Origin: Candidatus Bathyarchaeota archaeon
GTDB taxonomy: Archaea > Thermoproteota > Bathyarchaeia > Bathyarchaeales > Bathycorpusculaceae
Length of the DNA: 64,000 nucleotides
Direction: 5' to 3'
Assembly (NCBI GenBank): GCA_963733095.1
Contig: CAVTBV010000009.1
Coordinates: forward strand, 160,001 to 224,000
The notes beneath the pieces are model-generated. The model saw only the letters and a program-made list of their open reading frames with translations. It searched no databases and was not told the DNA's origin. The position numbers and the translations under genes were made by a program. Shown here one piece after another: positions 16,921 to 63,097 of this stretch (its first letter is position 1; every line of letters starts with the position of its first letter).

Positions 16921-17562
16921 TTAGTTTTCCCCTTCACATTCACACGCCGTTTTCAAGCCCAACGCTAAAAGGTACATTTCGCTGCTTTGTTGTCGGCTTG
17001 CCTGAGGCTTCACCAATTTTACCTCTTCAAAGAGGGTTTTCACGTGTAGAAGGAAGTCGTTTAGCAGATCGCCTTCGAAGACTTTGACAAAAAAGTTTCC
17101 GTTTACTCGCAGTACACATTGGGCGATTTCTAGGGCTTGGGTCGCTAAGTCGATTTGTCTTGCGTGGTCAACTTCCCATACGCCTGTGATGTTTGGGGCA
17201 GCGTCGCAGAGAACGACGTCCGCTTTGCGTGGAATAAACGAGATAATTTGGTCAACTACGCCTGGTTCTGTGAAGTCGGCGATGATTGTTCTGATATATT
17301 CTTGCGTGAAGGGGTCAATCGGCTTTAAGTCTAAGCCTAAAACAAAGCCGTGTTTGCCTGTCATTTTTCTTGCCGCTTGAATCCAGCCGCCTGGAGCCGC
17401 ACCTAAATCTACAACGACATCGCGCAGTTTGATGAAGCCGTATTTCTCGTTAGCTTGAACCAGTTTGTATGTGGATCGGCTACGATAATTTTCTTCTTTG
17501 GCTTTTTTATAGTAATATTCGTTTTTTCTCTCACGTATCCAAGCTTTCGGCAACGGAATCAT
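16921..17562 (-). CDS. rlmE: 23S rRNA Um2552 methyltransferase (FtsJ/RlmE)
   Basis: YRSRS.YKL, DLGAAPGGW, DAAPN, KVF, ASR..SSEMY. Confidence 0.95.
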   Translation of the reverse strand: MIPLPKAWIRERKNEYYYKKAKEENYRSRSTYKLVQANEKYGFIKLRDVVVDLGAAPGGWIQAARKMTGKHGFVLGLDLKPIDPFTQEYIRTIIADFTEPGVVDQIISFIPRKADVVLCDAAPNITGVWEVDHARQIDLATQALEIAQCVLRVNGNFFVKVFEGDLLNDFLLHVKTLFEEVKLVKPQASRQQSSEMYLLALGLKTACECEGEN

Positions 17563-17980
17563 CCTCTGGTATGCTTGGCTCTGGTGCTGAGGCGCTTTGA
17601 CCTTCAGTGTCAGTAACTGCTGGCGCTGGCGGTTTTCCTAAGTTCAGTATCCAATCGGTTAGTTTGGGGCAACTTTTGGGGGAAAGGGCGGTTGTGGGGT
17701 CGCAGCGTGCGTTGTCTGGGCATAATAAGCATGGGCAATCCACGATGGTTTCTATGGATGCAGGCAGCCTTTTGGGGTAGAGCCTATAGGTCCATCTGCC
17801 TTCTTGGAGTTCTTTTTCCCTGCGGATAAGCCCCTTCTCTTCTAGTTTAATCGACACGCGAGAACCTTCGCGGCTGCTTGCGCCGAGTTCACGCCATAAA
17901 TCTGATTGCAGTACACCCTGATAACCTGTACCGACGACGTAGTGAAGTGCTTTCTGTTCAAGGTCATTACGCTTAGGCAT
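17531..17980 (-). CDS. TFE-beta / RPC34-like winged-helix Fe-S protein
   Basis: GVLQSDLWRELG.SSREGSR wHTH plus C-terminal PCLLCP...C...SPKSC..LTDW. Confidence 0.8.
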   Translation of the reverse strand: MPKRNDLEQKALHYVVGTGYQGVLQSDLWRELGASSREGSRVSIKLEEKGLIRREKELQEGRWTYRLYPKRLPASIETIVDCPCLLCPDNARCDPTTALSPKSCPKLTDWILNLGKPPAPAVTDTEGQSASAPEPSIPEDDSVAESLDT

Positions 17981-18017
17981 TTATGATCAGTTCCAAATAA
18001 TACAGTAATATAAGCGT

Positions 18018-18046
18018 TGGATTCACATAAAAATATGTTTCCTTAG
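18018..18046 (+). repeat. Candidate attL
   Basis: tggattc-acataa-aaatatgtttccttag versus tggattc-aaatatgtatccctag at 28164-28186. Confidence 0.55.
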
Positions 18047-18119
18047 CTGTAGCTGAGAATATATCTACCATCTTTAGTTTTTTTGAAAAGCTTTTTAACG
18101 ATAGAGAGGTTGTTAGCAA

Positions 18120-19490
18120 TTGAGCGATTTGACTCAAGCTAATGAAAAATGGGTTCTATCCTTTGAAAGTGGTCGCAATTGGCTACCTCACTTGCCTAGT
18201 TCAAGTACTAAAGAGCCGTTCATTCGACACCTAAAGAAATACTCTCTATGGGCTAAAATGAATCCTGATGAATTGATAAATTTCAAGATTGAAGGTTTAA
18301 AAGCAGTAGCAACAGAAAAGGAATTCCAAGCCGAAAGAATGCTAGAGAAGTATCTTAGACAAACTGGAATGACGCAATCAGTTGCAGCATACGCCAAAAA
18401 CGCCATTATTAGCTTCTATAAGCACAATTGGAGAGAACTTAATTCAGAAGTCGCTAGAGATATTGAGCCACCAGAAGCAAAAAAGAGAACGCCTAAGCTA
18501 GAAGAAATTCAAGAGCTAGAAAGCAACTGTACAACCGCTAGAGATAGGGCTTTAATTTGGTTTTTCCCGTCTACTGGTTTTAGGATAGGAACGCTAACCA
18601 AGCTATTTAGAAATGACCTTAAACCTACTGGTGACGCTGAAGTACCTTATTATCTGGAAATAGAAGCTAAGAGACTAAAAGGCTCTGGAATTGGTAAGTA
18701 CAAAGGGCTTAAACAAATCACCTTTGTTAACAGCTTTGTTTGGGCTAAGATGCAAGATTACTTCGCTGAAGCTAAAAGAAGAGGTTTTAATCTAACTGAG
18801 GATTCACCGCTATTTATCGGATACAAAGGTCGATTTACTAAAGAAGAAAGAAAGCTATCCGTTAAACCCAAAAAAGTTAGAGCAATGACTGAAGGAGCAA
18901 TCAATAACACTTATGACAATGCATCACTAGCCGCTTGGAAAGACTTAGAGGTAAAACGCTTTTCTCCCCATGACAACAGAGATGTTTTACAGAGTGCTTT
19001 AGAGAATGTCGTTAACGATAACATGATAGCTCCTATGTTAGCCCATAAACCAAAAAACGCTGTTGACTTCCACTATTCAAGCCACTTATGGCAAGAGCTA
19101 TTACCAAAATACAAATTGGCATTACCAAAACTAATCCCACAAACCACAGCAGAACTTAAAATAGAAATAAACCAACAGAAAGCAACTAACCAAAAACAGC
19201 AATCCGAAATAGAAGCCATAAAAGAAGAAATGAATGCAAGATTTGAAAAACTAGCTTCTCTTTTGAAAAGTGATGCAAAAGTATTACCGCCTGAAAATCA
19301 AGATGAAATATTTAGATTAAAGACAAATGGATTACTATCGGAAAGTGAAATAGCACAAAAGCTTAAACTTAAACTTAAGGCAACGGAAGACCATTATATT
19401 GATGAAAACGGAAAAGAATTAGACCCTAAAACTTTAACGGAAGAGCAAAAGAAGAAATTTAAATCTGTAACGGAGTATTGGGAACTTTAA
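18120..19490 (+). CDS. Tyrosine recombinase/integrase
   Basis: RDRAL..STGFRIG (Arg), SPHDNR (HxxR), MLAH, FHYS (Tyr): full catalytic set; coiled-coil C-terminal extension. Confidence 0.92.
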   Translation: MSDLTQANEKWVLSFESGRNWLPHLPSSSTKEPFIRHLKKYSLWAKMNPDELINFKIEGLKAVATEKEFQAERMLEKYLRQTGMTQSVAAYAKNAIISFYKHNWRELNSEVARDIEPPEAKKRTPKLEEIQELESNCTTARDRALIWFFPSTGFRIGTLTKLFRNDLKPTGDAEVPYYLEIEAKRLKGSGIGKYKGLKQITFVNSFVWAKMQDYFAEAKRRGFNLTEDSPLFIGYKGRFTKEERKLSVKPKKVRAMTEGAINNTYDNASLAAWKDLEVKRFSPHDNRDVLQSALENVVNDNMIAPMLAHKPKNAVDFHYSSHLWQELLPKYKLALPKLIPQTTAELKIEINQQKATNQKQQSEIEAIKEEMNARFEKLASLLKSDAKVLPPENQDEIFRLKTNGLLSESEIAQKLKLKLKATEDHYIDENGKELDPKTLTEEQKKKFKSVTEYWEL

Positions 19491-19569
19491 TTTACGCTCT
19501 TTTCCCACATCTTTTTTATTCTCTTTTTACCCTAAGATTCTAAATTATAGCCAACTATCAAAGATTGAT

Positions 19570-19605
19570 ACTAAGATAGTATGTGATTCTAAACTAAGAT
19601 AGTAT
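19570..19605 (+). repeat. 13-bp perfect direct repeat (actaagatagtat x2)
   Basis: 19570-19582 and 19593-19605. Confidence 0.8.
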
Positions 19606-19619
19606 AGATAATATAATAT

Positions 19620-20313
19620 AGGTAGTAAAGTTAGTGTAATAAGTACACCCATAGCATAGTTAACGACTAAATTTTCTGTTGATTCTATTGGACCTAGCCT
19701 ACATTTTCGCTTTAGTTTGTCGGATAGTGGCTTTAGTCACTATCAATAATCTTGTCTTATCATGGACTCAATAAGGGATATTGTTAATTATCTAGAGTAA
19801 ATTGTGCGGATACATCGCTAGTGATTTTTATCCGACACAATATTTTAGGAATAAAGCAGAGAGTTAACTAACAGACTACAGCGAACAGTTTAATCTTGGA
19901 TAATGTCGGCTCTGGTTGTGTCGGTCTTCAAATAAGAAGATAAAGAGCCGAAAGTGTCGGTCATATGGGAAGACTGCTATCTCTGGGCTATAAGAGTTTG
20001 TCGTATAGATAACTGAGATAACTTATGCTTTAGCCCATATTCCCGACAGAACGGCACTATCTTATCGCCTATTCCTTATTATAATATCTATACCGACACA
20101 GAGAACACCAGAATATAGATAAGATTATAAATTAACTAAGATAACCTACACTTATAGACAGATAACCGACAAACTAACTCCGCTACCCGATTGAATCCGA
20201 CACCAAATCCGACAGCCAGCATCCATAGTTAAGCTACCCCTGAAAGAAAATCATTGTCCTCACGATGGCTATTCTGAAGCCTGAATATTAGGTTTATTTT
20301 TCATGGTTTCTTT
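19620..20313 (+). ncRNA. Putative large structured ncRNA (or folded ssDNA element)
   Basis: ORF-free; more than 15 nested helices found by eye; G-U wobbles mostly on the + strand; ends approximate. Confidence 0.65.
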
Positions 20314-20315
20314 GT

Positions 20316-20699
20316 TTAGTGAAGATTTTTTATTTCCTTATAACAAGTATCTAATTTTCTTAAGAGTTTAACAACTCCATAATACGCAATCAATGAAGTT
20401 ATTGCAGCTACGAAAAATAAAAAAGTATTTATGGTGAAAGCTGGAGGTTGGTTTATGAATAATTGTATTGCAAATACTGTAAAAGTGACTCCACCAGCAA
20501 AAAACCCAAAAATTCCAGCTAAGTAGATTTGAAGGTCTGAATTGAGTTGGGCTAACCTGATTTGTAAGGCTCTATCTTCAATTATAGCATTTCTATTTTG
20601 AATAGCAAAGGCTTTTTCAATCTTTTCTTTAATGGCTAAATATTTGTCTAGCGCTTTATTGAATTGGTCTAAGCCTTTATCAACATCACTATCAGGCAT
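20316..20699 (-). CDS. Hypothetical 2-TM protein
   Basis: 127 aa ORF, coiled-coil plus two hydrophobic helices. Confidence 0.7.
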   Translation of the reverse strand: MPDSDVDKGLDQFNKALDKYLAIKEKIEKAFAIQNRNAIIEDRALQIRLAQLNSDLQIYLAGIFGFFAGGVTFTVFAIQLFINQPPAFTINTFLFFVAAITSLIAYYGVVKLLRKLDTCYKEIKNLH

Positions 20700-20755: not shown

Positions 20756-20938
20756 TTATCGGTGTCTATCATAGTCGTTTTTAGATAACACATAACCAGC
20801 TAGAGAAATTAAGAGAAAACCGACAACGCTCATGATAATTTGACCGATTAAACTTAAAGCCAAAACGTTAACTAAACCAAAAAGCAAAACAACTACTCCT
20901 AAAGCAAGAACAAATTTGAAAGCGTCTACTAATCCCAT
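20756..20938 (-). CDS. Small 2-TM protein
   Basis: 60 aa; SD-like GAGGT upstream. Confidence 0.7.
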   Translation of the reverse strand: MGLVDAFKFVLALGVVVLLFGLVNVLALSLIGQIIMSVVGFLLISLAGYVLSKNDYDRHR

Positions 20939-23882: not shown

Positions 23883-23988
23883 TAGAAATAGCCTTAAGCT
23901 ATACTCTATCGTAAGTATTAAATGTTACGATACTATTTAAATATTTTTCCTTTAAAAAATAAATGTTGTTACATGTCCTAAAAAAGAC

Positions 23989-24250
23989 ATATGTTAATAG
24001 AAGGGAAGGTTCGTGTTAGTCGAACCTGAAGAGTTAATTAACATATATGTGCTTCCACCCTTATAAGCTTTATGGCGTAATAAGACACCATATATGGCGA
24101 AAGTTAACGTTAAAAGAGCAAACCCGTGTTAGTCGGGAATGCCAAAGTTGAAGGATTTTTTAGGTTAAAAAAAGAGTGTCTATGGTGGTGAAATGGATGA
24201 AATGTATAAGCTACCTATGCCGACACCCAAACATAGGATAATAGCTTATA
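23989..24250. other. Hairpin-rich non-coding locus (candidate origin or small RNA)
   Basis: Two stems with the identical loop TGTTAGT; a third stem has CCGACACCCAAA as its loop. Confidence 0.65.
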
Positions 24251-24437
24251 AGTGAAGTTCACGAATTTAAATATTTTTATTGCTAGCAACAATCAATTAT
24301 TTTGTAGTTAGGAATATGGTTATATTATACATATTAACCGCAAAATCACTAAAAAGAGTTATTGGAAATAAAAAGACATAAATAGCTATATGAAGCTATA
24401 CGACTCTATAGCAAATATTAATATGGGAGATATGTAA

Positions 24438-26202: not shown

Positions 26203-26323
26203 AAATTATAATGAATGTTCATGTGGCTTCGATAAAGCTGAGACCCGTATAGTTAATGGTCAAGTCTGGATAGTTTGCAGTAATCCCTTATGTCAAAAAG
26301 TACGTTATCGTTCATGGTTCTAA
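26192..26323 (+). CDS. Small Cys-rich protein (43 aa)
   Basis: Manual translation MVYENYNECSCGFDKAETRIVNGQVWIVCSNPLCQKVRYRSWF. Confidence 0.55.
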   Translation: MVYENYNECSCGFDKAETRIVNGQVWIVCSNPLCQKVRYRSWF

Positions 26324-26509
26324 ACCACTCTCCCCCTAGTTGGAGATTATATACTAATCAAATAATCTCAAAAAAATATGGGCTATTCTAAGGCTGTTTT
26401 TCTTTCTCTCACATAATCGCCTTATTTCCTCACTATAGCTTTTAGGCTAGCTTTTCTTTTTTGGCTTATGCATATCGATTATTATGCTATATCGACCATA
26501 ATAAAATAA

Positions 26510-26608
26510 AATCAGAGCTAACCCTAAAAATAATTTTTCAAAATATTTTTTGTTTTAGGTCTCTCTATGTGTAAAAAGTTGAAAAAAGGGGCTTAAAATG
26601 GGCTTCTT
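26510..26608 (-). repeat. Degenerate long inverted repeat, right arm
   Basis: ggggcttaaaatgggcttctt (26588-26608) is an 18/21 reverse complement of 23012-23032. Confidence 0.6.
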
Positions 26609-26821
26609 TTCCATTTTTTTCAAAATTTTCCCTATTTTAGACCCTATTTAAACCAAAAGTTTGTTAAGTTTGCTTCTCAAATCGCTTAAAATACAACTTT
26701 TGGTCCATGCTCACCCAGAGTATTAAAATATTTTCAAAAAGGAGCGTGAAAAAAGACGAAAAATGATAAAACGAAAAAATCTAAGACGGAACCTCAAAAA
26801 GAAGCGTTAAATTACAATTCG

Positions 26822-28111
26822 TTGATAAAAAAAATTGCTGAGAATGGTGACCTTTGCGTTCTCGGCATGAAAGGCACATGTAAAACCACTCTGCTTATGC
26901 ACTTAGCTAGAAACATAATGGAAGACCTAGACAACCACTTGATTATATTTGAGACCTTCCCGAAATGGCAAAAGGAATTCGATATTATACCCTACATGAT
27001 AATAAGCGATAGTGACGTTCAAGAAAAAGAAAATTCGCCATATATGCAAGAAAATTATTCTTATATTCAATGGTCTAAAAACTATGAGATAGCTAACGAA
27101 AGCGAAGTTTTAGAATTTCTAAAGACTAATAGAAATTGCTTATTCCTTATCGAAGCTGAAGACATGGAACGAATAAGCGCCTTTATGGAATTCGTGATTT
27201 ATACATGCTACAGAAAACAATACTTGAGAGCTAAAGCTGAAAACTTAGAGACTGTTAACGCTAATTATTGGTTCTTATGCGAAGAGGCACATAACCTTTT
27301 AGACAGTACAGTACTATCTAAAAAAACCTTTAACAAACTCCGAAAAATGCAGAGCGAATTCAGAAACTTAAAGATGCATCTTATAGTTGTGACTTTACGG
27401 TTACAATCACTTAGCCCAAAAATTAGAAGTACCATGTCTCTTTTGTGTTCCCGTGTAAGTTTGGATGACTACATGCTTAAGCTGAGAGCGTTATTAAGAA
27501 ATAGCGAATACAGAGACCTTATCACAACATTACCCAAAGGCGAATTTGTTTTTCCAGAGACAGACCAAAAATTAACAACTAAGCCATTTAATCAAGCTGG
27601 AAAGCCATATGAATGGAAACCAGAACCAGAGCCAACTATAGAAGAGACCACAGAAGAGCCTAGCTCAGAACCAGAACAGCCTAAAACCATTATGGGATTT
27701 ATAAAGAATCTATTCCACAAAAGCAAACCTGAGATTATAACCCAAAAAGAATACGATAGACTAAACAACTTAGACGATAAAGAATCAGAACCAGAGATAA
27801 AGATAGTTAGGGAAAAAGTTATAGCTATCACAATTAAGAAACCCAGAGCCACAAAACCAAAAACTACAGAGCCGATTAAAGAACCTGAAAAATCAAATAT
27901 GGAAAAGCTAAGAGATGTTTATTCCTCAGATAGCCAAGCATCTAAAGATTATGAAGCTTGGAAGAAAAAAGCTTTAGCCGAAAAGAAGCAAACAGAAACT
28001 AAAGAAGCAGAAACCGAAAGCAAAGAGAGGGAAGACAACATAAATGAAGATTCAAAAGGCGATTTTTTAGCCCTAAATGATGATGATTTAATGTTTAGTG
28101 AAGAGGAATAA
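26822..28111 (+). CDS. FtsK/HerA-superfamily-like P-loop ATPase with low-complexity tail
   Basis: Walker A GMKGTCKT, Walker B WFLCEEAH, FRN..hhhhT.R...L...IR; E/K/P-rich C-terminus. Confidence 0.8.
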   Translation: MIKKIAENGDLCVLGMKGTCKTTLLMHLARNIMEDLDNHLIIFETFPKWQKEFDIIPYMIISDSDVQEKENSPYMQENYSYIQWSKNYEIANESEVLEFLKTNRNCLFLIEAEDMERISAFMEFVIYTCYRKQYLRAKAENLETVNANYWFLCEEAHNLLDSTVLSKKTFNKLRKMQSEFRNLKMHLIVVTLRLQSLSPKIRSTMSLLCSRVSLDDYMLKLRALLRNSEYRDLITTLPKGEFVFPETDQKLTTKPFNQAGKPYEWKPEPEPTIEETTEEPSSEPEQPKTIMGFIKNLFHKSKPEIITQKEYDRLNNLDDKESEPEIKIVREKVIAITIKKPRATKPKTTEPIKEPEKSNMEKLRDVYSSDSQASKDYEAWKKKALAEKKQTETKEAETESKEREDNINEDSKGDFLALNDDDLMFSEEE

Positions 28112-28163
28112 AAAAAATGAACAACCACAAAAGTCAAAAATCATATATCCTTAGTTGGGGCTG

Positions 28164-28186
28164 TGGATTCAAATATGTATCCCTAG
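28164..28186 (+). repeat. Candidate attR
   Basis: aaatatgtatccctag is 14/16 identical to 18031-18046; shared tggattc upstream. Confidence 0.55.
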
Positions 28187-28202
28187 TTAAATGTGGAATG
28201 AC

Positions 28203-55724: not shown

Positions 55725-56135
55725 GGTTCCCCTCTCGGAGAAATACTCACTGCCAAAGCATAAGAAGCTTTTTCCAAAATCCATCTTTAGATTATATTGA
55801 TGCCGATAGTTTGTAGAAGCCCTTATTTTTTTACCACGAGCATGAAGATTTTTGAAGTTGTTGTTGTTAAGCAATGCAGCAGCATTTCAGCCCTTCACTA
55901 CTCGGTGCCCGAAGCGCTCGCTACTAACATGAGCCAAGAACTCAATTCAAACATTCTTTAAATTAATCCCTTTCTCAATAAAAATGAGCCGCTTAAACAA
56001 ATATCATTAATTAAAATAGCTTTATTTGAGTGGGGATTCAATTTGATTTCCCACATAAAACACCCAAGGATTGGAGTTCCACTCCTGTCAAAATCATATA
56101 ACAGTAACTAATTAGATTTCGTCCCAAGTGTTTGC

Positions 56136-57797
56136 TTATTTCCAAGCCTTTTCTATATATTCACTTAACATTCTTTTAGTGTTATAATAAGAAGCCAGCG
56201 AAATAGAATTTTTTTGCATTTCTACCCATTTTTCGTGGTTACTGTAAAATGTGGGCATTACCTTTTGTTCTAATACGTTGTATAAGCCGAGAGCATTTTG
56301 AAAATCTGTTTCATGTTGGTAACCAAAAGCCCAGCCTATTTTGCCTTCTTTTGTTTTGAATTCTTCATCTATCCATCCGTCCCAAGAACTAACATTTATA
56401 ACTCCGTTTGGAAGGGCTTTCATTCCGCTAGTTCCTGAGGCTTCATTGGGCGGTCGTGGAGTATTCAATAGAACATCAACACCCGCGATCAACGTGGGGC
56501 TGATTTCCATCCCGTAGTTTTCAATAAAAATGGTTGGGATCGCTCCATTAATTATTCGGCTCTCTTCATGAATCTTTGTTATTGCCTCTTTGCCATAGCC
56601 ATCTCTCGGATGGGCTTTTCCAGCCATTAGAATTTGGATTTTTCCCGATCCAATAAGTTTAAGCCTTTCTCTCTCGGTGAAAATCAATGTTGGTCTTTTA
56701 TATTCAGCTATTCTTCTAAACCAACCTAGAGTCAGTTTGTTCCTATCCAAATCTATTCCATATTCATCTTCAATGAAGTCCAATAAAATTATCTTGTTTT
56801 CTAAGTGAGCTTTCCATACTTCGTCATTGGGTAATCTCAGGGCATCTTTTAATTTTTCTGGGTTCTCTTCCCAACCAGGAAAATGCCTATCAAATAACCC
56901 TTTAAAACTACCACTGGTCCATGTCCCAAGATGTACAGCATTGGTAATATAATCTATATTTTTATTAGGAAACATATCTCGGGCTGCTTCAGCATTTTTT
57001 TTAGAAACACCGTTCTGATAATCGCTTAAACTCATGGCAAGTTTTGTCATGTTTAAACAGTTTGCCTGTTCACCGTATTCTTTAATTTTGTCTAATGGAA
57101 AAGAATCTTTTAGAATGCGCTCAACCAATCTCATAGGAAATATTTCGTGTCCCGCGGGAACTAAAGTATGAGTTGTGAAGCTAAATTTTTTCTTTGTTTT
57201 ATCCTCATCCCAATTGTATTTATTTGCAAGTTCTAATGTTGCAAGCGCCGTATGACCTTCGTTCATGTGGTACTTTCGTATATTGTACCCTAGCTTTTCT
57301 AAAAATCTAACTCCACCGATTCCAAGGACTACTTCTTGTTTGAATCTATGGCTTTGGTGTTCGTCGTATGTAGTGGATTTGCCCTTCCAATAGCAATTCT
57401 CACTGATTTCTTTATCTTCTGTAGCATTCTCACTTAATCTAGTGTCAAGAAAATATATCAAGACTTTATTGTTATGTCCATTTTTAATGACATACTCTTC
57501 TGCACCAATTGTAACGTCTCTATCTTCAATTTTTACCTTGACCTTTTCATCCCTTTTTCTCAACACACCGAAGGGATTTGACCTTTTTAGCACTTCTTTT
57601 TGCTGGTAATTTTCAATTTTTTGTTCAAAATACCCTTTATGATGTCTTAATGACACACCCACTAACGGAAAATTTAGTTCAGCTGCACCTTTTATTGTAT
57701 CTCCCGCTAAAACACCAAGCCCTCCACAACAGGTGGGAAGGCGAGCGTTTACGCCGATTTCCATTGAAAGATAAGCGACACTATCCGTATATGACAT
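56136..57797 (-). CDS. glgP: Alpha-glucan phosphorylase (short form)
   Basis: SME, GGLGVLAGD, HMNEGH, FTTHT, YKR, AGKAHP, EASGTSGMK. Confidence 0.93.
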   Translation of the reverse strand: MSYTDSVAYLSMEIGVNARLPTCCGGLGVLAGDTIKGAAELNFPLVGVSLRHHKGYFEQKIENYQQKEVLKRSNPFGVLRKRDEKVKVKIEDRDVTIGAEEYVIKNGHNNKVLIYFLDTRLSENATEDKEISENCYWKGKSTTYDEHQSHRFKQEVVLGIGGVRFLEKLGYNIRKYHMNEGHTALATLELANKYNWDEDKTKKKFSFTTHTLVPAGHEIFPMRLVERILKDSFPLDKIKEYGEQANCLNMTKLAMSLSDYQNGVSKKNAEAARDMFPNKNIDYITNAVHLGTWTSGSFKGLFDRHFPGWEENPEKLKDALRLPNDEVWKAHLENKIILLDFIEDEYGIDLDRNKLTLGWFRRIAEYKRPTLIFTERERLKLIGSGKIQILMAGKAHPRDGYGKEAITKIHEESRIINGAIPTIFIENYGMEISPTLIAGVDVLLNTPRPPNEASGTSGMKALPNGVINVSSWDGWIDEEFKTKEGKIGWAFGYQHETDFQNALGLYNVLEQKVMPTFYSNHEKWVEMQKNSISLASYYNTKRMLSEYIEKAWK

Positions 57798-58075
57798 AGA
57801 TAGGGATGTAATTACTACAAAAATAATAAAGCTTTACACGCAAAAGCATAATCCTGTTATTTTTTGTGAACCTGAAGTTTATTCTTAGATTATAACCTCA
57901 ACAGTAAGTTTACAATACATTACTTTCTGTAACCATTACTCACCAGTTTCTTCTTTATGTGACTTGACGTAAGGTCGTTGGCGGGATTAGTAACAGAATG
58001 CTGTAACAAGTTAAGGAATTTAGTCACCACAAAAAGGGCGCAGATAAAACCCCTTCAATGAATTAGGAGCAGATT

Positions 58076-58091
58076 TGGAGCCTTCGGCGGG
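58076..58091 (-). other. tRNA 3'-end remnant (att-like)
   Basis: Reverse complement cccgccgaaggctcca = T-stem 3' side + acceptor strand + T + CCA. Confidence 0.55.
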
Positions 58092-58877
58092 TATTCTAGC
58101 TACAGAAACACAGTCTTATGCTGTGTTAAGAAGTACCATTACTTGCTTAAGGCAGATAGCAATCTTAGAGAATTAGAGCTACGCAGCAATGATGTTAAGA
58201 GTAGTATTGCTAAGTCTCTGTTGTTATTCTCAAAGTTTAACGGTTGCTACTCACAGTTTAAGGCAAGGCTATCTGAGTATGGGATAAATCTGTACAGACC
58301 TGACAGTCTGAATGCTTTTCTAAGAATACTTGGCGCCACCAACTCAAACATCTTAGAGTATTATAATGAAGTTACTCCATTGCTTAGAGATAATGAGCAG
58401 TTATTTGCAAAGTTTCTCTTGCAAAGTGGCTTGAGGGTTAGTGAGGGAATTGAGAGCTTTAACCTGATAATTCAGCTAGCACGTAACAATAAGCTATTAG
58501 ACTATTATGATGAGAACTTAAGCTGTTTAATGCACTTCAAATATCCAACGCTCTTCATCAGACACACTAAGAATGCATTTATCACCTTCATCAGCAAAGA
58601 TTTCTTGGAGCAAATAGCAGAGAGCCAGCCAGTTACTTACTTTAGCATTAGAAAGAGGTTAGAGAGAAACAAGAAGCCTTTGAGGCTCAATGAGTTTAGA
58701 GACTACTTTGGAACAACCTTAGTCAATAATGGAATCTTAGACCGAACAGAACTTAGTCTGCGGAAGAATACCAATTAGCATATTTTCAGCAGACACTATT
58801 GGAGCCCTAAGCTCAAAGAATTGGGAGAAAGAATCTTTGCTGCTACTTCTAAAATAGGCGTAACAGTAACTTGCTAA
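58092..58877 (+). pseudogene. Tyrosine integrase pseudogene
   Basis: SGLRVSE, RHTKNAF, FRDYF in frame; EQNLVCGRIP and RHYWSP lie in shifted frames; no proper start. Confidence 0.85.
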
Positions 58878-58985
58878 AACCATTCTAAGTCTTGACCATG
58901 CCAATCATTGTCCTCTGATTTTATAGGCTAAGTTACCTGTTCAAAATGCTTGATGTCTAAGACGAAAAAGTATCATAAACAGATA

Positions 58986-59015
58986 TTGAGACGTCAGACC
59001 TGATTTTAGATAGAA
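58986..59015 (+). repeat. ~30-bp direct repeat, copy 1
   Basis: ttgagacgtcagacctgattttagatagaa. Confidence 0.75.
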
Positions 59016-59039
59016 GCTTAAGTTAGAATCGAACTGCTT

Positions 59040-59378
59040 TTATTTCATAAATGAGTCTGCAGAATTAATTTGCCTTAATTCGTGCTCCAAACAATCAGTA
59101 AGAGTGGAATCTTGTTTTATAAGGATAATAATTTTCTCCTTAAACTGGAAGGTATGTGCTTCAACATTTTTGTTGTCAAAACCTGCTCCATTTTTTTCAA
59201 CTCTAGTGTTTATCATATTAGGAGTTGTCTGCAACAAATTCGCCATACGCAAAAAGTCTCTATCATCAAATGTGAAGGCATAAATTTCTGGCATTGGTTT
59301 ATCTGAAATCTTTTTCCAAACACTTTCAAGAATTCTATCAGAAACTGGATTGGTAGATGGAAGTTGAGGTAATTGCAA
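59040..59378 (-). CDS. Hypothetical protein (HExxH-like LEHEL)
   Basis: 112 aa ORF. Confidence 0.6.
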   Translation of the reverse strand: MQLPQLPSTNPVSDRILESVWKKISDKPMPEIYAFTFDDRDFLRMANLLQTTPNMINTRVEKNGAGFDNKNVEAHTFQFKEKIIILIKQDSTLTDCLEHELRQINSADSFMK

Positions 59379-59496
59379 ATTGATACCCTCGCATTTATTG
59401 CTAGAGTATGCTTATAAACCAATTGTTTAAGGTGTTACGGATCGTAACTAGTACATTAACTGGAGGTTGGAGAGATTAACAACTGCTTTCTTCCGA

Positions 59497-59787
59497 CTAG
59501 ATTTTTTCATCTATGGTAATCTGATGAATTTTGCCCAGTTTCTTCTCTATGGTTATGCCAATGTTTCTTCCAATATAAGGTGCAAAGATTTCCTCAACGG
59601 ATAAAACATCTTCTAATGGAAATGGCGGTATTGCACTTTCAGGTTTATGTGGCATGTCAAGAGCTATATATGACTTGCCATTTACGTTAAGCTCTGTAAC
59701 TTTACCGTTATAAACAATTTTTTCCCTGCTTAAACCGTTTCTATACTTTGGAGACAAAGAAAATCTAGTTCTATGCTTTGCAGACAT
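59497..59787 (-). CDS. Hypothetical protein
   Basis: 96 aa ORF with upstream TATA-like motif. Confidence 0.65.
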   Translation of the reverse strand: MSAKHRTRFSLSPKYRNGLSREKIVYNGKVTELNVNGKSYIALDMPHKPESAIPPFPLEDVLSVEEIFAPYIGRNIGITIEKKLGKIHQITIDEKI

Positions 59788-59980
59788 AATTAGCCTATTT
59801 CTATGCTGTGCAGATTTAAGACTTGTTAATTATTCAACAAAAATCCTTTCTGTTCAGTTCTTGCGCTTTTGCATCACTCTAAACTTAGACTTAGAATAGA
59901 TTCTTAGCACTATTCTATTCTACTGGAACAATCAGGTATTAACAAACTAGAGTATGATAAAAAAAGTGAAAGCGGCTATC

Positions 59981-60265
59981 TTATTTGGGAGGATGAAGAT
60001 ACATATGTAACTGAGCTTTTGAAACTTGAACTTCAACTCTATCCTTAGATGTGCTCTTAGAAGCTGGCGCAACAGCTGAAATTGCCAGAGTATTATAGAA
60101 CGATTTCTCTGCACCAAGCAACTCTTTAGTCGCTTCTTTAGTCATTTTTATTGCAAGATGAGTTATTTTCCACTCTTCTGGATCTAAAATGATATCCGTG
60201 ATAATGCCCAGTTTTAGATTTTCACAATAGACCTCTTTATAGAGCAATTCATAACGAAATTTCAT
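59981..60265 (-). CDS. PRC-barrel protein
   Basis: L..KEV....KLG.I.DI.LD...WKITHL.I. Confidence 0.75.
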   Translation of the reverse strand: MKFRYELLYKEVYCENLKLGIITDIILDPEEWKITHLAIKMTKEATKELLGAEKSFYNTLAISAVAPASKSTSKDRVEVQVSKAQLHMYLHPPK

Positions 60266-60364
60266 AAAATAAACCACGCTCTTAATAGATATATACTCTA
60301 TTTTCTTTATAAGATTTGCGAAATTGTGAAAAACTTGGCTAATTATGATTGATCTGAACAAACC

Positions 60365-60511
60365 ATGATGCTTGTGGACACTTTATTGGGTGGATTCAAA
60401 CACTGCCCAAAATGCCACATTTACCTCTGTGGTCTATGCTCATATCAACTGATGAGTATACAAAGTAAATTTCCAATAGAGTGCCTAATGTGCAGAGGAA
60501 TACTAAGTTAA
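60365..60511 (+). CDS. Small Cys-rich (RING-like) protein or fragment
   Basis: Manual translation ...HCPKCHIYLCGLCS...ECLMCRG. Confidence 0.5.
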   Translation: MMLVDTLLGGFKHCPKCHIYLCGLCSYQLMSIQSKFPIECLMCRGILS

Positions 60512-60611
60512 GCAATTTGCCATTTGCTTTAGTTCGTAACTTTTTGATTCTATACATTTAATGCCTTGATTAGCTCTTCCCTTGTTTCAGGCAATCTAGA
60601 TTTGATGATGC

Positions 60612-60640
60612 TTGAGACGTAAGACCTGCTTTAGATAGAA
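60612..60640 (+). repeat. ~30-bp direct repeat, copy 2
   Basis: ttgagacgtaagacctgctttagatagaa. Confidence 0.75.
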
Positions 60641-60701
60641 AATAAAAACTGGAGCAATGGCTAAGATTCCCACTTCTATGAGTATTTCTTTGTATGTCAT
60701 T

Positions 60702-60998
60702 TCAACTTGCATGAATGGTTGACTGAATAGTCTTGTAATAGGCTTCTTCACCTATTGTTTCCTTAATAATCTTCTTCTCTATTTTCTTCTCTTCCACTAA
60801 TTTATCTAAAGCTGTCCTTACTTGTGCAGCAAGCTCATAACTCTTTGCCTCTTTTGTGACTTCGTACCCCAAACCATTCATTATGCTCACAAGACTAAAA
60901 GCAACATTCACGCCATCTTTTTTGTTCAGAAAAGACATTATTCTATCTTCAAGTGGACGTACTTTTCCAGAATCCCATTCATCATTATCAATAGGCAT
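60702..60998 (-). CDS. Winged-helix-like protein
   Basis: MPI...W..G, RI..FL, AF....I, AL..LV....I...YY. Confidence 0.7.
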   Translation of the reverse strand: MPIDNDEWDSGKVRPLEDRIMSFLNKKDGVNVAFSLVSIMNGLGYEVTKEAKSYELAAQVRTALDKLVEEKKIEKKIIKETIGEEAYYKTIQSTIHAS

Positions 60999-61409
60999 TT
61001 TTCAACCCAATTCTATTTCTAGCCATTATGCAGATTTAAGATTTACCTTTATGAAAATTGCTTGGCTGAGATTATCCAGTTAAGAGTCAGCACTTAAAAG
61101 GTTAAGCCAAAAGTTATCTTGGATTCCTTTTTAGCACTAACGCACTAATTGAGCCTGTTACAATTAGGGCTATTATGATTATCAACGATGGAAACTCTGG
61201 AACTGTTGGAGTTGGAGAAGAGGTGCTAATTTGCTGGTTGTGTTTCTTTTAAAAACTTTTCTAGTAAAAGAGTTATTGTCGTAACTATTAGTGTCTATCA
61301 TATTAATTGATGTTAATAGTTGTTATTTACATAAGTGGTTGGTGTATTTACTGTGTTTATTAGACTTAGTATTAAATAGTGTGATTAACATATATTTAGT
61401 GTGAATTAT

Positions 61410-61709
61410 ATGGTAGATTTGAATAACTCTAAAAAGAAGTTAGCAGTGAAAGCTACGCCAGTAAAGGAAGTTCCAGAGGGCAAAAAGATAGCTAGAAGAC
61501 CAGAGTATGATGAAGCATTCAAAAAGGTTATGGACAGCCCAGAGAAGATTTTCAAGATTGAAGTGGAAGGCAGGACAGTAAAAACAATGTATGCACCATT
61601 TGCTTCTAGAGTAAAGAGATACAATAAACAATCTGACAGAAAATTCAATGCACAGCTTAAAGTAAGAAGTAAGGAAATCTATATTGTCAAATTAGATAAG
61701 TCAGACTAG
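61410..61709 (+). CDS. Basic hypothetical protein
   Basis: K-rich ORF, T-rich terminator-like tail. Confidence 0.7.
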   Translation: MVDLNNSKKKLAVKATPVKEVPEGKKIARRPEYDEAFKKVMDSPEKIFKIEVEGRTVKTMYAPFASRVKRYNKQSDRKFNAQLKVRSKEIYIVKLDKSD

Positions 61710-61765
61710 AATACTACAGAATATTTTCTTTTGTCCGCTCTTTTCTTTTCACTTCATTTTTCAGC

Positions 61766-61803
61766 AGAGTTTTCTTTACGCTCCAAAATTAGTTCTTAAT
61801 GGT
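61766..61803 (+). repeat. ~38-bp direct repeat, copy 1
   Basis: agagttttctttacgctccaaaattagttcttaatggt. Confidence 0.75.
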
Positions 61804-61831
61804 TGGAAGCTGTCATAGGTGTATTGCAGGT

Positions 61832-62122
61832 TTAGCGCATATTACTTTGGCTTAGGGCGCTATTGGTTTTTTGAAGTTTAATTTTGCCATGAAAAACATG
61901 GTATGAAAAAATAGCAATTATTAAACCTGCAATGCTCATAATAGAGCCAATTAGTAGTTTAGGATAAGTTATAATCACTCCATTGTTTAAGGTATGAATT
62001 TCAGTAGTTGAAAGGGCATTTAAGATTCCACTTACAACCAAAACAACACCAAACAACAGAAGCAAAGGTACAACTATTCCTCTAATAAAATCAATCAAAT
62101 TAAATGAAGAATAAGTTGACAT
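61832..62122 (-). CDS. Small 2-TM protein
   Basis: 96 aa; lies between the two ~38-bp repeats. Confidence 0.65.
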   Translation of the reverse strand: MSTYSSFNLIDFIRGIVVPLLLLFGVVLVVSGILNALSTTEIHTLNNGVIITYPKLLIGSIMSIAGLIIAIFSYHVFHGKIKLQKTNSALSQSNMR

Positions 62123-62167
62123 AACTCTCGATGATAATTTAGGTTAATACTCTTAAATATTTTTCTA

Positions 62168-62204
62168 AGAGTATTCATACGCTCCAAATTTGTTCTTTAA
62201 TGGT
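62168..62204 (+). repeat. ~38-bp direct repeat, copy 2
   Basis: agagtattcatacgctccaaatttgttctttaatggt. Confidence 0.75.
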
Positions 62205-62418
62205 CACTAAATAGCTCCTCTTGCACTCTGCCCCGCTCCTGTCTCGAGATAGGCACGGATTAGTCGGAACCTGCCCGAACACAATGTATCAAGGCAACGG
62301 TCATATGAATTCTGGATGCATAAGGCTTATGAAAAGTGTATCCTTAGGCTGATTGGGCGGGTTCAGAGGGAACTGCTGGCTCACGCACTTCCACAAACTC
62401 TCAACCTCCCCCTTCTTT

Positions 62419-62552
62419 AAGGCCTTCCGAAATCTAGGGGACATAGTAGAAAAGGCTTATCTGAATTTAGCTTATCATCAGAACATAAAAAAAAATAAAT
62501 AATATTATTTTGATTTCTCTTTCTCTATACGGGTCAATTTGTTAAAGGCCTT
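62419..62552 (+). repeat. AAGGCCT-bounded ~132-bp element, copy 1
   Basis: aaggcctt...catagtagaa...cttatcatcagaacat...aaaaataaa...aaggcctt. Confidence 0.85.
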
Positions 62553-62554
62553 GG

Positions 62555-62687
62555 TTAAGCTTTCCTTTTCGCTTTGCCTACTTCTTCCTGGACCTTGCCT
62601 TCTACTTCTTCAACTTTGCCTTTAATCTGTTCAGTTTTGTCGCCAGTAATTTTACCTAAGCCTTCGCGGACTTTGCCCTTGAAGCCT
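62555..62687 (-). pseudogene. CsbD-family fragment lacking a start
   Basis: KGKVREGLGKITGDKTEQIKGKVEEVEGKVQEEVGKAK; an in-frame stop is met upstream before any start codon. Confidence 0.75.
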
Positions 62688-62767
62688 ACCCTGATCGTCG
62701 CCTGCTTCGGACTGAGAAATTAGCCCTTAGTTAAAAAAAACTAAACTGTAACTTGAGCCTTTTTGCT

Positions 62768-62998
62768 CTACATGCACTGAAGAGGCGTGCTTGCGGAGAT
62801 TTTCGGTTTATGTCCTTGATTTAGGAGTTCTAGTGCCTCATCGTTTGTTATTCCGAAGGGAAGAATATCTTTGTGAAAATTTTCAACATGTGACCGTACA
62901 ATGGATATGGCTTCACATATGCTGCCTAAGATTTCAAAACTATAACCGCAGGGACATTGACCTTTTAGCTTCCTTCTCAAATCGCTCTCCTCAATCAA
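62768..62998 (-). CDS. Small metal-binding protein (CxC...HxxxxH)
   Basis: QCPCGY...HVENFH. Confidence 0.6.
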   Translation of the reverse strand: MIEESDLRRKLKGQCPCGYSFEILGSICEAISIVRSHVENFHKDILPFGITNDEALELLNQGHKPKISASTPLQCM

Positions 62999-63097
62999 CT
63001 CAAAGATGTATTTAAAATAAAAAATGAGATATTAACTTCTGTGACTGCACAAGCGCAATCACAACATTATCATTTAGAAAGTTAGTCCAAGCCAACC

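Follow-up and report, generated by a model that had tools for sequence, protein, structure and literature searches.

A possible protein-binding DNA array in an integrated element of a Bathyarchaeia archaeon

Within a 64,000-nucleotide (nt) stretch of a Candidatus Bathyarchaeota genome (contig CAVTBV010000009.1, positions 160,001 to 224,000; hereafter the window, in whose numbering positions are given), an integrated element of approximately 10.1 kb, low in G+C, encloses a non-coding region that an original prediction, made by eye, had taken for a new large structured RNA read from the integrase strand. We find that 11 sites with a TGTCGG core are embedded there in an imperfect palindrome of ~240–466 base pairs (bp) between convergent genes and, at a probability of roughly 0.55, we favour the interpretation that the region is a cis-acting protein-binding DNA array and not an RNA gene. 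The most likely role of such an array would be that of a replication origin for the excised circular form of the element, an assignment that we make tentatively and to which we would give somewhat less than even odds.

A hexamer array on a DNA dyad

The features that carry this interpretation are as follows.

19718–20214, both strands: 11 TGTCGG-type sites, from a motif count
19712–20177: core dyad-symmetric domain with the perfect 12-bp inverted repeat TTAGTTTGTCGG / CCGACAAACTAA, from a repeat search and folding
19891–20127: imperfect gapped palindrome (that is, the rod of the original prediction), from a check of its helices and a fold under DNA parameters

Ten exact copies of TGTCGG and one of TGTCGT lie within 497 bp, five on the + strand (19718, 19904, 19919, 19955 and 19999, the last being TGTCGT) and six on the − strand (19832, 20043, 20093, 20166, 20197 and 20209). 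In 2,000 local dinucleotide shuffles 0.15 ± 0.38 copies of TGTCGG are expected (maximum 2), no G+C-rich hexamer exceeded four copies in 500 shuffles, and at the rate of the genome (1,107 TGTCGG occurrences in 2.84 Mb) the Poisson probability of the cluster is 1.7e-14. The array is the densest TGTCGG cluster in the genome, the next ones holding six and five copies, both on contig C1. The sites are sorted by orientation in the order + − + + + + − − − − − (one-sided rank test, P = 0.026): all five that point rightward lie on the left, and five of the six that point leftward lie on the right, with one (19832) in the left half. Partial flanks are common to the copies, namely (A)GTTTGTCGG(A/T)TA and TGTGTCGG(A/T). 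A host regulon based on the same word was considered and rejected, given that TGTCGGAT occurs at 62 scattered sites in the genome and that the five-copy cluster, the sole runner-up that was read through, is coding sequence.

The original prediction had described a long-range closing helix, a rod of nested helices and several local hairpins, and all of its coordinates hold. The closing helix (19712–19723/20166–20177) is exact over 12/12 bp, the inverted repeat reaching 15 nt at 93%, and the minimum-free-energy (MFE) fold of 19891–20127 under DNA parameters reproduces the rod, at the centre of which stands the hairpin 19988–19992/20004–20008 with the TGTCGT copy in its loop. Perfect Watson–Crick pairing over 4–12 bp was found in 12 of the 13 long-range and rod helices listed; the pair 19801–19812/19829–19841 has unequal arms and mismatches. 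What had been overlooked is that many of these helices are copies of one motif, TGTCGG, and that three of them (19712–19723/20166–20177, 19917–19925/20092–20100 and 19955–19960/20043–20048) are pairs of sites.

Pairing does not account for the motif. At least four sites (19832, 19904, 20197 and 20209) lack a mirror partner, the copy at 19999 sits at the dyad centre, two sites (20197 and 20209) fall outside the 19712–20177 termini, and only 11 of the 145 pairs in the MFE fold link two sites; the cores are exact, and the sequence between them has diverged. Partnerless sites are explained neither by a single inverted duplication nor by the needs of an RNA helix. The 11-fold reuse of one hexamer points to protein-binding DNA sites and not to an RNA, in which each helix would require a unique partner. 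The combination of an orientation-sorted word array, a dyad and the insulated non-coding spacer of a mobile element likewise argues for DNA sites on which a protein would load.

The thermodynamic evidence concerns the core. Under RNA parameters, 19712–20177 folds with z-scores of −6.0 (+) and −4.7 (−), values that 0 of 100 shuffles reach on either strand, and the rod 19891–20127 gives −3.2 (+; 1 of 100 shuffles) and −4.5 (−; 0 of 100), or −4.04 (+) and −4.22 (−) under DNA parameters (0 of 200 shuffles each). The 5′ part (19620–19890) gives −2.6 (+; 0 of 100 shuffles) and −1.25 (−; 12 of 100). Folding in excess of shuffles, one of the checks proposed with the original prediction, was thus found for the core, with no strand preference, and not for the whole 694-nt span (z −1.76 on + and −1.84 on −; 1 of 20 shuffles equal on each strand). 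The proposed 3′ domain folds no better than shuffles (20178–20313, z +0.25 on + and +0.71 on −; 56 and 74 of 100 shuffles reach these values). Several stems had been said to need G-U pairs that work on the + strand only; the listed helices contain 0 G-U pairs, and the MFE of the core is nearly the same on both strands (−126.9 kcal/mol on + and −126.0 kcal/mol on −, with G-U accounting for 14 of 145 and 11 of 144 pairs, respectively). Near-equal stability on both strands is the kind that a palindrome gives, which argues for dyad symmetry at the DNA level. The two arms align as a gapped inverted repeat with a score of 53, against 27.4 ± 5.1 and a maximum of 44 in 500 shuffles. Of the excess stability of the core (~30 kcal/mol), scrambling the sites costs ~16 kcal/mol and shuffling everything else ~24 kcal/mol; as the scrambled sites lose only ~16 of ~30 kcal/mol, complementarity reaches beyond the motif.

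The spacer and the integrated element

The array lies in an 825-nt gap (19491–20315) that separates the convergent genes of the integrase (int) and of a 127-amino-acid (aa) predicted membrane protein, and in which the longest stop-to-stop frame has 63 aa (31 frames of at least 20 aa listed). Further features of the gap are the following.

19500–19528, + strand: three oligo-T runs (T4, T6 and T5) just past the integrase stop
19570–19605: in the AT-rich left flank, an exact direct repeat of ACTAAGATAGTAT (two copies, 23 bp apart)
19776–19803: 28-nt block, 27/28 identical to L067:6516–6543 in the closest related element and in opposite orientation relative to int (E = 3.8e-7, in a small search)
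20243–20313, − strand: 3′ flank of the convergent 127-aa gene (the 3′ domain of the original prediction), from the shuffle test

Given that archaeal transcription terminates at oligo-T, the T4/T6/T5 runs are likely to be the termination signal for int, and with a − strand T-run at 20250 such runs follow both convergent genes and bracket the region. AT-rich direct repeats bound the palindrome on two sides (19533–19618 and 20114–20150), a block akin to the ACTAAGATAGTAT repeats recurring at 20114–20134. The left part of the gap also holds, on the − strand, a 35-aa hydrophobic open reading frame (ORF; 19545–19652, MGVLITLTLLPILYYLYYL...) that is too short to evaluate. The other non-coding gaps of the island (23883–24437 and 26203–26821) have no TGTCGG array. 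A search of sequencing runs listed no RNA run that contains the locus; one DNA run, with a small share, gave a single 151-nt contig that covers 20379–20526 only.

The element itself is delimited by the following genes and sites.

18019–18046: attL, left direct-repeat copy; host-like sequence stops near 18038 (alignment of junctions with empty sites)
18120–19490, + strand: tyrosine integrase, 456 aa, with the catalytic residues (PF00589 and XerA_Arch below cutoff)
20316–20699, − strand: predicted membrane protein, 127 aa, convergent neighbour, no family match
26822–28111, + strand: P-loop ATPase of the HerA/FtsK superfamily (homologues, AlphaFold 2 (AF2) model, Foldseek)
28165–28186: attR, right direct-repeat copy; host sequence restarts upstream of Kae1 (28191)

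The element is truly mobile. Its G+C content is 31–38% (window 18–28 kb) against 44–49% on either side, where host genes encode CDC48, TruD, a geranylgeranyl-reductase-like protein, Kae1 and a Bud32-type kinase, and the insertion point is a ~70-bp spacer between a divergent 149-aa gene (17531–17980) and Kae1 (28191). This spacer is empty in 26 of 29 loci of other congeneric genomes; two of the remaining three carry an integrase or integrase fragments and one is broken by a contig end. An imperfect direct repeat, GGATTCA..AATATGT.TCC.TAG, stands at both junctions when these are aligned with seven empty sites.

We also observed that the spacer between the 149-aa gene and Kae1 (window 17981–18119 and 28112–28190) is a recurrent integration hotspot. 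Loci L022, L023, L052, L067, L076, L078/L079 and L087 hold islands of ~4–6.5 kb or fragments there (in L052, integrase fragments only), with integrases ~65–78% identical to that of the window and mostly unrelated cargo; the cargo in common is the ATPase in L067 and a 275-aa protein in L087 only. A second stretch of low G+C in the window (56000–63000; 33–40% against ~45%) may be another island.

Profile scans of ten island proteins (Pfam, PHROGs and NCBIfam; eight of the ten again at E up to 10) gave matches for two of them only, the integrase (weakly) and the ATPase (a P-loop hint), and the remaining island proteins stayed without annotation (Pfam, PHROGs, NCBIfam and a PDB profile search, with Atlas for two proteins). 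For the integrase these matches are PF00589 (E = 2e-4) and XerA_Arch (E = 4e-7), and its catalytic R, HxxR, H and Y are invariant in an alignment with five relatives. Its C-terminal ~100 aa (residues ~360–456; 19196–19490) have no counterpart in those five; the tail is rich in lysine and glutamate, and the relatives end in shorter, dissimilar tails. Nucleotide homology to the islands of two other genomes (G004 and G019) ends inside the integrase gene, at 19126 and 18983, respectively.

The element ends with the ATPase gene, which is read in the same direction as int. Relatives of the ATPase number 105 at E ≤ 0.001 among 1,175 candidates, the closest being 74–79% identical. The predicted structure (AF2, mean confidence score (pLDDT) 76, and >85 over residues 1–270) finds as its top Foldseek matches HerA (E = 9e-9) and the packaging ATPase B204 of STIV/STIV2 (TM-score 0.64–0.70 on the target), so that the modelled fold appears to match those of the HerA translocases and of the genome-packaging ATPase B204. 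Neither the ATPase nor the element family has a match in deposited phage or plasmid records, and searches of viral contigs with the integrase, the ATPase and the 275-aa protein returned no relative of any of them. One metagenome contig (L088:3–2633) holds an ATPase relative (67% identical) followed ~1.2 kb on by an integrase relative on the same strand, with two reverse ORFs between them, and could be a circular or tandem form. Relatives of the cargo gene g275 occur in 7 of 300 family genomes, none with the array or other island genes.

A 60-aa protein (20756–20938, − strand) has two hydrophobic helices with a short turn between them. Such a two-helix pattern is described for capsid proteins of spindle-shaped archaeal viruses in a published account of Bathyarchaeia viruses (PMC10848311), an analogy by which the element may be a small provirus. 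We take it to be a small provirus or an integrative plasmid; that its family is undescribed is a weak claim, based on literature searches.

A candidate origin and its relatives

We suggest that a site-specific DNA-binding protein would load cooperatively on the two opposed arrays and that this loading would remodel or melt the centre of the dyad, from which a cruciform or rod might be extruded; either a host factor or the product of one of the element's unannotated genes could act as the binder. The ATPase gene (26822–28111, +), attR/attL and int (18120–19490, +) are co-oriented and the array follows int; excision would join the ATPase gene, attP and int as one co-oriented unit that ends at the array. 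The fallback that the original prediction had allowed, a DNA-level origin or DNA-level iterons, fits the sequence.

The closest known system is the experimentally mapped origin of the temperate archaeal pleolipovirus SNJ2 (Rep-Arvir system), described (PMC13107129) as a non-coding region of ~210 bp that has a single conserved hairpin and a single inverted repeat (a ‘bind’ site) and stands directly after the Rep gene and at the end of an operon that circularisation assembles round the integrase gene. Both are non-coding hairpin-forming regions with an inverted repeat between genes of an integrated archaeal element, and both stand at the end of a co-oriented block that becomes continuous with the integrase gene only after excision. 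The array occupies the position of the SNJ2 origin at the end of the block joined by circularisation, as the gene geometry shows, and this supports an origin role. The present region differs in its length (~500 bp), in its 11 hexamer sites and in that the upstream gene is the integrase itself; it has no sequence similarity to the SNJ2 origin, and profile scans, with no structure-level search for a TBP-like fold made, recognised no Rep-Arvir (DUF7845), Rep_trans or HUH protein.

Classical iterons (for example, those of pSC101, P1, R6K and the lambda origin) are direct repeats of 17–22 bp, helically phased and located beside a rep gene. The region resembles such origins in its many copies of one short word in non-coding DNA, its AT-rich flanks and its dyad symmetry, and differs from them in its 6–9-bp core, its irregular spacing and its arrangement as two inverted arrays.

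No homologue of the region was found in 119 congeneric genomes (chance pieces of 20–33 nt in six of them only) or in phage and plasmid collections. The comparison took in 8 genome loci and 27 metagenome loci with homologues of the integrase (37–78% identical), several of which occupy the same attB and carry unrelated cargo. The gaps downstream of these homologues have no sequence in common with the present gap and no comparable word cluster, nor the conserved structured element that the original prediction would have led one to look for. Nine genome-contig loci recovered through the ATPase, all nine from Bathyarchaeota or Bathyarchaeia, hold no homologue of the region beyond the block common to L067. 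This closest element (int 72% and ATPase 72% identical) also has flanking genes in common with the window, at ~85% identity.

Word arrays of other kinds were seen elsewhere. A distant relative (L073, ATPase 36% identical) has 16 TAATCA/TGATTA words within 500 bp of a 640-bp divergent intergenic region (L073:5807–6447), several of which form TTAATCAnnTGATTAA palindromes. In viral contigs the 24-nt block pattern had 0 matches; the 15-nt site pattern matched at least 118 stretches, of which 80 were screened, none with more than four TGTCGG in 500 bp and all with single chance matches save one. That one, in an unrelated 67-kb viral contig (L142:12160–12210), has four tandem CCGACAAACTAA 12-mers in an intergenic gap, a 12-mer that also forms the closing inverted repeat of the present region, beside small ORFs without a Pfam match. 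Across 400 other genomes of the class a triple-site pattern was about as frequent as its reversed control and was found in tandem or coding repeats and in no comparable array.

Several observations weigh against a protein-binding array that serves as an origin. None of the relatives examined has the same array, and its function is therefore without support from conservation; in L067 the corresponding 421-nt gap has neither TGTCGG sites nor excess folding (z +0.35). Neither a replication-initiator family nor a DNA-binding family was found among the island proteins in Pfam, PHROGs and NCBIfam, and no recognisable initiator gene, such as accompanies iteron origins, was found in the island. The sites are spaced irregularly, 12 to 114 bp apart, unlike phased iterons. 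The strict low-gap palindrome score of the 825-nt gap is 29 against 25.5 ± 4.4, which 42 of 200 shuffles reach; as this is chance level and the helices are exact, the dyad is real but heavily gapped. Mimicry of host origin recognition boxes (ORB) was also rejected, the repeats adjacent to cdc6 being TCCAGTAGAA, a word unrelated to TGTCGG. Two copies of TCCAGTAGAA stand in an 810-nt gap upstream of an Orc1/Cdc6 gene (G000:C1:63315–64123), a gap that, judged by its sequence, is a candidate chromosomal origin with ORB-like boxes.

Alternative explanations and implications

The region might instead be a decayed inverted duplication or a fossil miniature transposon, with subterminal hexamers that once bound a transposase and no present function, and we consider this unlikely. 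Such an origin would account for the perfect inverted termini (19712–19723/20166–20177), for arms that align well beyond shuffles, for complementarity that goes beyond the motif and for absence from all related elements examined; with the ends of Tn7, Mu and Ac/Ds and with miniature inverted-repeat transposable elements (MITEs) the region has in common a perfect terminal repeat (12/12 bp), inward short words and a hairpin-like fold. MITEs, however, are multi-copy, whereas the region has one place in its own genome and none in the 119 congeneric genomes, and the island has no transposase. Two sites (20197 and 20209) lie beyond the putative termini, partnerless sites would require independent gains, the site cores are exact although the spacers have diverged, and the possible target duplication amounts to 2 bp (CT) only.

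A loading, packaging or partition site, in which the HerA/FtsK-type ATPase, or else a protein that binds centromeres, would be directed by polar sites to the dyad centre, is a doubtful alternative and has little probability in our estimate. KOPS guide FtsK towards dif in a comparable manner, site polarity converges on the centre here, and only int and the ATPase are conserved in the element family. The elements L067 and L069, however, have ATPases 72–73% identical and no TGTCGG array, and the reading of sequence by the ATPase is without support.

Very unlikely, in our view, is a large structured non-coding RNA or a folded single-stranded DNA rod, such as a rolling-circle single-strand origin; that 19712–20177 is a transcribed new RNA of >450 nt, borne by a family of archaeal integrative elements, in which TGTCGG serves as protein- or RNA-contact modules, or a single-stranded rod in an unrecognised replication mode, is more improbable still. 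Stability of the core far beyond shuffles, a 5′ part (19620–19890) that folds somewhat better on the + strand and a long gap without an ORF would all agree with such a molecule; with large prophage-associated non-coding RNAs such as GOLLD and ROOL the region has in common a length of several hundred nt, residence in a mobile element and a predicted multibranch fold. Unlike those RNAs, the region matches none of the 4,227 models of Rfam 15 at gathering score anywhere in the 64-kb window (the original prediction had likewise seen no match to hallmarks of tRNA, SRP, RNase P or group I/II introns), has no strand preference and has no homologues among those sought; in lax mode one match appeared within 19400–20400, to snoR30 (19.1 bits against a gathering score of 43; E = 6.8). 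The stability and G-U pairing that a structured RNA would have on the transcribed strand only were not found, the MFE fold has a frequency of ~0 in the ensemble and is unlike the centroid, only 67 pairs are common to the MFE folds of the two strands (145 and 144 pairs), and one hexamer in many helices would invite mispairing. Among five long gaps downstream of homologous integrases, four fold no better than shuffles (z +0.61, −0.54, +0.36 and +0.35), and the fifth (L076, z −3.6) has an unrelated sequence that is coding-like in part. No gene of HUH or Rep_trans type was recognised among the island proteins in the profile scans. With equal stability on both strands, listed helices free of G-U pairs, no Rfam family and a reused hexamer, the RNA of the original prediction is without support, and nothing favours it.

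It is similarly improbable that the region is a substrate of the adjacent tyrosine recombinase (an invertible segment, shufflon-like sites or arm-type integrase sites), as the att core is ~1.7 kb from the array with int between them and not within a few hundred bp, relatives at the same attB with integrases ~66–78% identical have no TGTCGG sites, and no inverted repeats flank the block in L067, against which stand the adjoining recombinase gene, an inverted pair (19713–19726/19829–19842, 86%) that brackets a 102-bp segment beside it, four TGTCGGAT(A/T) sites that can be compared with the att half-sites GGATTCA and GGATACA, and, inside that pair and between inverted TGTCGGATA sites, the 28-nt block (58 nt by local alignment, 19758–19815 against L067:6489–6556), the reversal of which in L067, a different element, could, to judge from the sequences, record a past inversion.

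The region is best classed with a known kind, the control or origin regions of mobile elements that are rich in repeats and dyad-symmetric, here in an archaeal family not otherwise characterised. The case also carries a caution, in that a DNA palindrome with many copies of a binding site can look to the eye like a convincing nested rod; symmetry between the strands and reuse of one motif are quick ways to tell such a palindrome from an RNA. Bathyarchaeia are abundant uncultivated archaea of sediments. If the interpretation is true, the array would be a candidate origin or protein-loading site for an undescribed family of small integrative elements in this lineage, a family with a divergent tyrosine integrase and a HerA/FtsK-type ATPase as its defining genes, the ATPase having more than 100 metagenome relatives. 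The design of vectors, and the search for the protein that reads TGTCGG, could then start from the cis element together with the att sites.

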